From the UHGV virus genome UHGV-0092003: 64,000 nt of DNA; one strand, 5' to 3'. The notes beneath the pieces were generated by a model. That model saw nothing but the letters and a program-made list of their open reading frames with translations. It was not told the DNA's origin and ran no database searches. The DNA is from a virus. Below, in pieces: positions 28,024 to 28,352 of this stretch (positions are counted from its first letter, which is position 1; each line of letters starts with the position of its first letter). A program made the translations under genes and the position numbers.

Positions 28024-28128
28024 TGCAAAGATTCGGTCTTGACGAACACAGCGAAGAAGACATCATTTGATACCTTCATGCTATGCCATATATTGACTCT
28101 GCCAATGACTTCATCATAGATTGTCAAG

Positions 28129-28341
28129 GTGGTGAATCCCCCTGAGCGGTGGGGCGACCAGTCAGTTACAGTGATCTGTAAATGCAGCGCGAGCCATGTC
28201 GGCTGGGACATGCTCACCGGGAGGCACCCGGCACCACAAGCGTTACTAAGCAAATTCGTAGCAGAATTAACCCCTTGTTAACCCTGTTATGTTTAACAAA
28301 TCCAATTTCAACCCGCCCCCCCTTGTGCGGGTTTTTTTTTA
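28129..28341 (+). ncRNA. Candidate ~210-nt small RNA bounded by a sigma70-like promoter (TTGACT-18-TAGATT at 28093-28122) and a strong terminator (CCCGC...GCGGG followed by T9 at 28310-28341)
   Basis: The interval holds no credible ORF, is GC-rich and looks structured (GGUGGUGAAUCCCCCUGAGCGGUGGGGCGACC...). Confidence 0.35.
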
Positions 28342-28352
28342 ACTCAAACTGC

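Follow-up and report, generated by a model that had tools for sequence, protein, structure and literature searches.

The 64,000-nucleotide stretch of DNA analysed here (the window) represents an SSU5-like phage-plasmid, and its interval 28093-28340 very probably constitutes a self-contained gene for a small RNA (sRNA) of the STnc100 family. The corresponding Rfam model (RF02076) aligns along its full length (model positions 1-206 of 206) to 28098-28294 of the + strand with 74.8 bits and an E-value of 1.6e-15, the gathering cut-off being 47 bits, and it is the sole gathering-level Rfam match across the 64-kb window. Other Rfam families gave only sub-threshold terminator look-alikes (Betaproteobacteria toxic sRNA, anti-hemB, and Trp leader), and a search of the window for a second, diverged copy returned none at up to 3 mismatches to the 3' box of the family. 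The preliminary description of the locus had proposed an sRNA of ~210 nt and had suggested a scan with Infernal against Rfam; the full-length, above-threshold match and a predicted transcript of ~212 nt (28128/9 to ~28340) bear this proposal out. The features of the locus are collected in Table 1.

The family is already described and no new RNA class is involved; it is the replicon context that is new, and a literature search found no published description of an STnc100-type RNA in SSU5-like phage-plasmids. As an sRNA call the unit is ordinary, and an Infernal/Rfam scan would annotate it. The first ~30 positions of the model fall on the window promoter and may therefore be untranscribed. The Rfam model under-covers the family, because L007, a member of a "type-2" subfamily, obtains no STnc100 match at the gathering score. 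Copies of this subfamily (L007, L018, L028, and similar ones) possess the invariant 3' box and a covarying pseudoknot, with a different P2 helix (GCG-GCUCAGCGCA-CGC).

Table 1. Features of the STnc100-family locus in the window
Feature	Position	Strand	Evidence
RecA-like 3' UTR end, left border of acquired block	27952-28022	+	Terminator scan; sibling alignment; GCGGTTTTTTTT
Cassette, ~319 nt	28024-28342	+	Alignment with sibling plasmid; 1 plasmid with, 24 without; direct repeats
Promoter	28093-28122	+	Scan; hexamer conservation in homologues
Predicted STnc100-family sRNA, ~212 nt	28128-28340	+	Rfam RF02076 match; fold z = -2.55
Structured 5' domain, ~110 nt, helices P1-P5	28129-28237	+	MFE fold; Rfam consensus; covariation on 53 distinct cores
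P1, closing helix	28129-34 with 28232-37	+	MFE fold
P2, CCCC/GGGG, loop UGAGCGGU	28139-42 with 28151-54	+	MFE fold
Pseudoknot 5' strand, CCAGUC, after P2	28158-28163	+	Permutation test; covariation
P3, variable hairpin	28166-71 with 28176-81	+	MFE fold
P4, 10-nt loop 28199-28208	28191-98 with 28209-15	+	MFE fold
Pseudoknot 3' strand, GGCUGG, in P4 loop	28201-28206	+	Permutation test; covariation
P5, CCGGG-AGGCA-CCCGG, running straight into P1 3' strand	28217-21 with 28227-31	+	MFE fold
3' tail, candidate seed and Hfq-contact region	28238-28309	+	Fold; ~89% conserved with IncF plasmid copies
Intrinsic terminator	28310-28340	+	MFE fold; kept in L003 and L004

Promoter, terminator, and fold of the predicted RNA

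The promoter named in the preliminary description is of the sigma-70 type and combines TTGACT (28093-28098) and TAGATT (28117-28122) across an 18-nt spacer, with 9 of 12 positions matching in the promoter scan. On its own this pair of hexamers is weak evidence, because in 3.5 kb the scan picked up 6 promoter-like sites, a count not above that of shuffles (3.6 +/- 2.0). The promoter becomes convincing through its homologues: in the Klebsiella-type copies, including those of a Klebsiella prophage (L002) and an IncF plasmid (L004), the -35 TTGACx and -10 TAnnnT elements stay fixed in place over spacers of changing sequence. A positional promoter test detected TTGACx-N16-18-TAnnnT, ending ~5 nt 5' of helix P1, in 32 of 114 unique copies. 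The spacing between the -10 element and P1 in the homologues therefore predicts a transcription start at ~28128-28130, at the first base of the closing helix. Two more promoter-like sites are present upstream, at 28039-28066 and 28067-28094 (TTGACG-16-CATCAT and TTGATA-16-TATATT (10/12)); this left part of the cassette is common only to the K. oxytoca plasmid discussed below and not to the IncF and prophage copies. These sites could give rise to 5'-extended transcripts.

At the other end of the unit, the strong stem and T9 terminator recognized earlier is confirmed as a 7-bp hairpin in the MFE fold, with the stem AACCCGC/GCGGGUU (28310-28316 with 28327-28333), a 10-nt C-rich loop, and T9 at 28332-28340. 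A terminator scan with a loop limit of 8 nt missed this hairpin because of the length of its loop. The hairpin is conserved in loci L003 and L004. Among the 114 family copies, 92 have an intrinsic terminator at most 330 nt away, and the predicted RNAs have a median length of 176 nt. In the preliminary description the terminator was also taken to insulate the convergent gene; on the minus strand, the hairpin runs into UGAAAUUGG and lacks a U-tract there, so that termination in both directions is not obvious.

The interval between promoter and terminator had been described as GC-rich and self-complementary; it is G+C-rich from 28129 onward, and its fold scores z = -2.55 on the + strand (2 of 200 shuffles as good) versus z = -0.80 on the - strand. 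The window copy forms helices P1, P2, P4, and P5. The most conserved parts of the family are P1, the P2 loop GCGG, the invariant P5 stem-loop (CCGGGAGGCACCCGG), and the pseudoknot; the junction GAAU is also invariant.

The pseudoknot pairs the strand after P2 with the loop of P4. Among the 111 unique cores that were read, its two strands change in a coordinated manner (e.g., AUCAGC/GCUGGU, CUGGUG/CACCGG, CUAGAC/GUCUAG, AAGGUUG/CAACCUU, and AAAUCUG/CAGAUUU). In a register-free test, each of 32 distinct loop hexamers was represented by a single sequence; the longest complementary run averaged 6.47, versus 4.23 +/- 0.18 when the partners were permuted, and none of the 5000 permutations reached the observed value. 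Plain MAFFT on the full cores, whose linker and loop lengths vary, could not bring the 5' strands of P4 and the pseudoknot into register, and an N-padded structural alignment of 53 cores, with P2 and P3 removed, was used for this reason. With the pseudoknot and P4 registers picked per sequence by best pairing, 93.6% of the cells in this alignment are paired, compared with 69.6% in shuffles (covariation score 0.644 versus 0.18); sliding the partner by 1-3 columns leaves 33-40% paired. In the pseudoknot, 91% of the cells are paired. Pairs that changed on both sides make up 5 of 7 in P1, all 6 in the pseudoknot, and 7 of 8 in P4, P5 being invariant. As the registers of the 53-core alignment were chosen by pairing, the register-free statistic is the unbiased one. 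Covariation, which the preliminary description had proposed to look for, was examined across the family cores and is found in P1, P4, and the pseudoknot.

On comparison of these sequences, the family core is a pseudoknotted fold supported by strong covariation. RNAalifold cannot predict pseudoknots. The pseudoknot is absent from both the Rfam RF02076 consensus and the published RNAalifold models; the structure models of a 2026 preprint were made with RNAalifold (10.64898/2026.05.13.724894). For this prophage RNA, which is widespread in pathogens, the covariation-supported pseudoknot provides a concrete structural hypothesis.

The cassette, its surroundings, and its relatives

The unit lies between two genes that had been called recA-like and multi-HTH. 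The former assignment stands: the upstream gene (26776-27843) is RecA-like (PF00154, E 9e-47) and is followed by a 180-nt 3' UTR and a terminator (stem 27999-28014, T8 at 28015-28022). This 3' UTR also contains a 12-nt inverted repeat (27881-27922; 92% complementary, 18 nt between the arms) that is kept in sibling plasmids. A convergent gene is present as well, as a 241-aa ORF on the minus strand (28353-29078) whose stop codon is located 12 nt beyond the sRNA terminator; the multi-HTH label is tentative, as the ORF has no Pfam or PHROG match. Four internal repeats of ~45 aa are discernible in it by eye.

Relative to sibling SSU5-like plasmids, promoter, sRNA, and terminator form an insert of ~319 nt. 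Among 25 Klebsiella SSU5-like plasmids that match both flanks, the insert is present in one, from K. oxytoca, and absent in 24. The plasmid with the insert is the closest relative of the window (NZ_CP138770; 112.7 kb, non-mobilizable): the flanks are ~99% identical, and the P3/P4 region is rewritten with compensatory changes. In the sibling NZ_CP103584 (L005), with flanks 98.7% identical, the T-run of the recA terminator passes directly into ACTCAAAC, which corresponds to window positions 28342/3 onward. The insert is flanked by a direct repeat GCGG-T8 (GCGGTTTTTTTT at 28011-28022 and GCGGGTTTTTTT, spacing 316-319 nt), and the exact cassette junction is ambiguous within the repeated T-run. A further 41-nt segment (27952-27992) is missing from the sibling plasmid and aligns with pre-terminator segments flanking STnc100 units in the Klebsiella prophage L002 and the IncF plasmid L004. 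Because of this resemblance, the acquired block probably measures ~390 nt rather than 319 nt. The block was likely acquired from a donor with an STnc100 unit, by recombination between similar terminator sequences; less probably, the siblings lost the cassette through repeat-mediated deletion. A module TAAATCGGTNGCTCGG...CTACCTTTCTGCCCGCC...GAGCGGGCTTTTTT precedes or forms terminators near STnc100 units in L002 (4240-4327) and L004 (3835-3925 and 4240-4340), and it is absent from the tail of the window copy.

Related copies are widespread. In 27 Klebsiella prophage records and Salmonella Fels-1, BLAST found the core (110-150 nt) with 77-98% identity, and the window core is 94-98% identical to copies in Klebsiella lambdoid prophages. 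In Fels-1 and Klebsiella phage 1 LV-2017, the copy has the Q antiterminator gene on one side and the holin/lysis genes on the other. Related copies are also present in ~50 Klebsiella plasmids, and 36 of 5426 complete E. coli genomes contain them as well, unannotated in all matches listed. On the conjugative IncFIB/FII plasmid NZ_CP031801, promoter, core, tail, and terminator are all present outside a prophage context, with 88 nt extra before the terminator; the same match of ~210 nt is obtained with ~45 other large Klebsiella plasmids. Exact matches to the 19-nt 3' box occur at no fewer than 120 loci in the viral collection and at least 120 in the genome collection, the genome matches listed comprising the Enterobacterales genera Enterobacter, Kosakonia, Citrobacter, Salmonella, Pantoea, Erwinia, Rahnella, Raoultella, and Klebsiella.

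Some loci contain tandem arrays of 3-5 STnc100 units, often ~253 nt apart (L075 4349-5513 and 8357-8555; L025 342-1038; L038; L016 2265-3380). Each array unit has its own terminator, the P3, P4, and pseudoknot sequences differ between units, and tRNA genes adjoin the arrays; in L075, a match to isrI (RF01392) is located directly upstream of one unit. In phage lambda (NC_001416 44839-44909, corresponding to L127 1040-1110), the sequence GTTGTGCTGAAT...CCGGAAGCAGAACCGGATCACC, located between tR' and S, appears to be what is left of an STnc100 core after degeneration and an internal deletion. It has no Rfam match at the gathering score, and its upstream bases match "type-2" copies.

This distribution indicates that an STnc100-type sRNA gene can leave lambdoid late regions as a promoter-to-terminator cassette and enter phage-plasmids and conjugative plasmids. 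Such movement is consistent with a product acting on the host in trans.

Possible modes of action

The best explanation overall, and a reasonably probable one, is an STnc100-family sRNA gene whose product acts in trans with the aid of Hfq. By analogy with studied relatives, the balance tilts slightly towards a constitutively made, Hfq-dependent, trans-acting regulator. The RNA would be produced constitutively for as long as the element resides in the cell as plasmid or prophage, Hfq would bind and stabilize it via the tail and the U-tract of the terminator, and it would act through imperfect base-pairing with host or phage RNAs, as relatives suggest; the structured 5' domain probably serves to shield the 5' end, to recruit some conserved factor, or both. 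The promoter-to-terminator unit is retained on more than 40 large plasmids of Klebsiella, conjugative IncF plasmids among them, which argues for a trans-acting product, while a purely cis role in a late operon is argued against by the occurrence of the stand-alone unit on non-phage plasmids.

The 3' part of the predicted RNA is compatible with such a mechanism. According to the fold, the poorly structured tail of ~70 nt comprises the largely unpaired CGUUACUAAGCAAAUUCGUAGCAG, a weak hairpin (28257-28291), and an A/U-rich single strand (28292-28309), which together with the hairpin 28310-28333 and T9 forms an Hfq-type module. The conservation of the tail with the IncF plasmid copies is not common to the prophage copies, and 3' tails differ between subfamilies. 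The longest complementarity of the RNA to the rest of the 64-kb window is 13 nt, compared with a mean of 12 and a maximum of 14 in shuffles, and thus does not exceed chance. Against a base-pairing mechanism, conservation is strongest in structure (P1, P2 loop, P5, and pseudoknot) rather than in a single-stranded seed. Such a pattern is unusual among sRNAs that base-pair with the help of Hfq. Nor is a validated direct target known for any of the relatives in E. coli.

This pattern of conservation leads to a different, rather unlikely reading, in which the function resides in the fold: the pseudoknotted 110-nt domain would bind or mimic a protein, a tRNA-handling enzyme, or a small ligand, and the association with Hfq would be secondary. 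The helices covary strongly, P5, the P2 loop, and the GAAU junction do not vary at all, and the pseudoknot is kept across at least 32 different loop sequences. The topology is tRNA-like, with a closing helix of 6-7 bp leading straight into a 5-bp hairpin; besides, copies adjoin tRNA genes in the Q-to-lysis region of prophages and occur in tandem arrays with differing internal hairpins. However, neither ARAGORN nor the Rfam tRNA model makes a call at the locus, the P5 loop of 5 nt precludes a T-loop, a 3' CCA is lacking, and no gene for a partner protein is consistently adjacent here. Moreover, relatives have been recovered by Hfq-CRAC and RIL-seq together with numerous mRNA partners (PMC7873438, PMC8550237). 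A tRNA or tmRNA proper was rejected: the tRNA-Phe (GAA) at 8775-8857 is the only tRNA that ARAGORN finds in the window, and Rfam gives no tRNA match at the locus. Along the same lines, and with similarly limited probability, STnc100/PasD, with its invariant domain closed at the 5' end and its hypervariable internal hairpin, might represent no ordinary seed-and-target sRNA, and instead a portable RNA module (for example a decoy, a tRNA-like substrate, or a ligand sensor) recognized by a conserved host or phage factor; if so, a ~320-nt cassette spreads among lambdoid prophages, IncF plasmids, and phage-plasmids.

It is improbable that the unit is a passenger without a role in the plasmid, i.e., a fragment of a lambdoid late region captured at similar terminator sequences. 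Such an origin would agree with its presence in only 1 of 25 related SSU5-like plasmids, the terminator-derived direct repeats at its borders, the neighbouring pre-terminator segment brought along, and the position of the family in the late operon of prophages. Nevertheless, promoter and terminator as well as all helices are intact, and many large non-phage plasmids of Klebsiella retain the unit. The K. oxytoca copy, too, differs mainly in P3/P4 and yet keeps P4 base-paired.

A transcription-terminating riboswitch or cis leader, in which the sRNA would represent the leader after termination, with downstream or antisense transcription controlled by read-through, is highly improbable. The architecture of the RNA resembles that of an aptamer (closing helix, multi-helix junction, pseudoknot, and invariant junction bases) followed by a terminator, and lysis genes lie downstream in prophages. 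An expression platform was nevertheless rejected, as core-terminator pairing does not exceed the cross-copy controls: the complementarity of the core to either terminator arm is not copy-specific (self -10.85 versus cross -10.61 +/- 0.34 kcal/mol). The distance from core to terminator ranges from ~10 to more than 280 nt over unrelated linkers, the terminators of array units are followed by the next promoter-like region, and the window offers no downstream gene on the same strand, only the convergent ORF.

Conservation of a small protein is hardly tenable and is refuted at the family level: a 50-aa GTG ORF (28129-28281) and an 89-aa minus-strand ORF exist mechanically, and P1 usually opens with RTG, but neither ORF has a Pfam match, core lengths are split 38/33/22 by length modulo 3 among 93 distinct homologous cores, the GTG frame of the window meets an in-frame stop in 62 of the 93, neither strand has a frame that is open in most of these copies, and the substitutions are those of compensatory base-pairing. 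The preliminary claim that the interval contains no ORF holds in this sense, and the conserved small ORF that it had named as an alternative source of conservation is not found.

Comparison with known prophage RNAs

Lambda 6S RNA and StxS, the pR'-to-tR' leaders, are likewise short, constitutive, terminator-bounded phage RNAs, and no sequence relationship of STnc100 units to them was seen. They start at the Q-dependent late promoter directly after Q, whereas STnc100 units are located further downstream, after stx2B or other accessory genes, and the lambda remnant follows tR' (PMC12370729).

Closer counterparts are the phage-encoded, Hfq-binding RNAs EcOnc27 (sRNA103) and EcOnc06, which overlap STnc100 and are paired with the anti-sRNAs AsxR and AgvB (PMC12711010, PMC7873438). 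EcOnc27 of EHEC overlaps an STnc100 annotation 75 nt downstream of stx2B (PMC12711010, PMC7873438, PMC12370729), i.e., Stx2 phages carry an STnc100 copy just downstream of stx2. It is positive in Hfq-CRAC and confirmed by Northern blot, and its overexpression raises fimZ and espA transcripts (PMC7873438, PMC12711010). Such sRNAs lie between the late promoter and the lysis genes in at least 8 Sakai prophages, often with the antisense AsxR/AgvB (PMC7873438). The window copy differs from the EcOnc RNAs in its tail sequence and in its Klebsiella host and plasmid context. An antisense partner also appears to be missing, since AsxR and AgvB give no Rfam match at E <= 10 in 27000-29500 and a scan of 28123-28345 detected no minus-strand promoter-like site; a pair of sRNA and anti-sRNA of the AsxR/AgvB type was accordingly rejected.

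PasD1 and PasD2, sRNAs of EPEC prophages that are related by published description, are tied to the Q and lpxR genes in E. coli prophages. They require Hfq for stability and have many RIL-seq partners (PMC8550237). A structure and ancestry common to PasD and STnc100 were proposed in the 2026 preprint of Zhu, Shabalina, and Storz (10.64898/2026.05.13.724894).

Within STnc100 itself, RNA-seq, Northern blot, and Hfq-CRAC have revealed family members of E. coli and Salmonella (PMC5331693, PMC7873438, PMC12711010, PMC10794520). In EDL933, 11 copies are transcribed, one of them Northern-confirmed (PMC5331693), and in Salmonella LT2 an RpoD ChIP-exo signal has been reported at STnc100 promoters (PMC10794520). 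With this gammaproteobacterial prophage sRNA of Rfam, first listed in Salmonella and present in three copies in Fels-1, the window copy has in common the boxes UGGUGAAUCCCCCUNNGCGGNGGGGC and CACCGGGAGGCACCCGGCACCA and helices P1, P2, P4, and P5. Its 3' tail and terminator align poorly to the terminator hairpin of the model, the real terminator being located ~40 nt further downstream. While the typical site of STnc100 is the Q-to-lysis region of lambdoid prophages, the copy described here resides in an SSU5-like phage-plasmid, flanked by a RecA-like gene and a convergent ORF.
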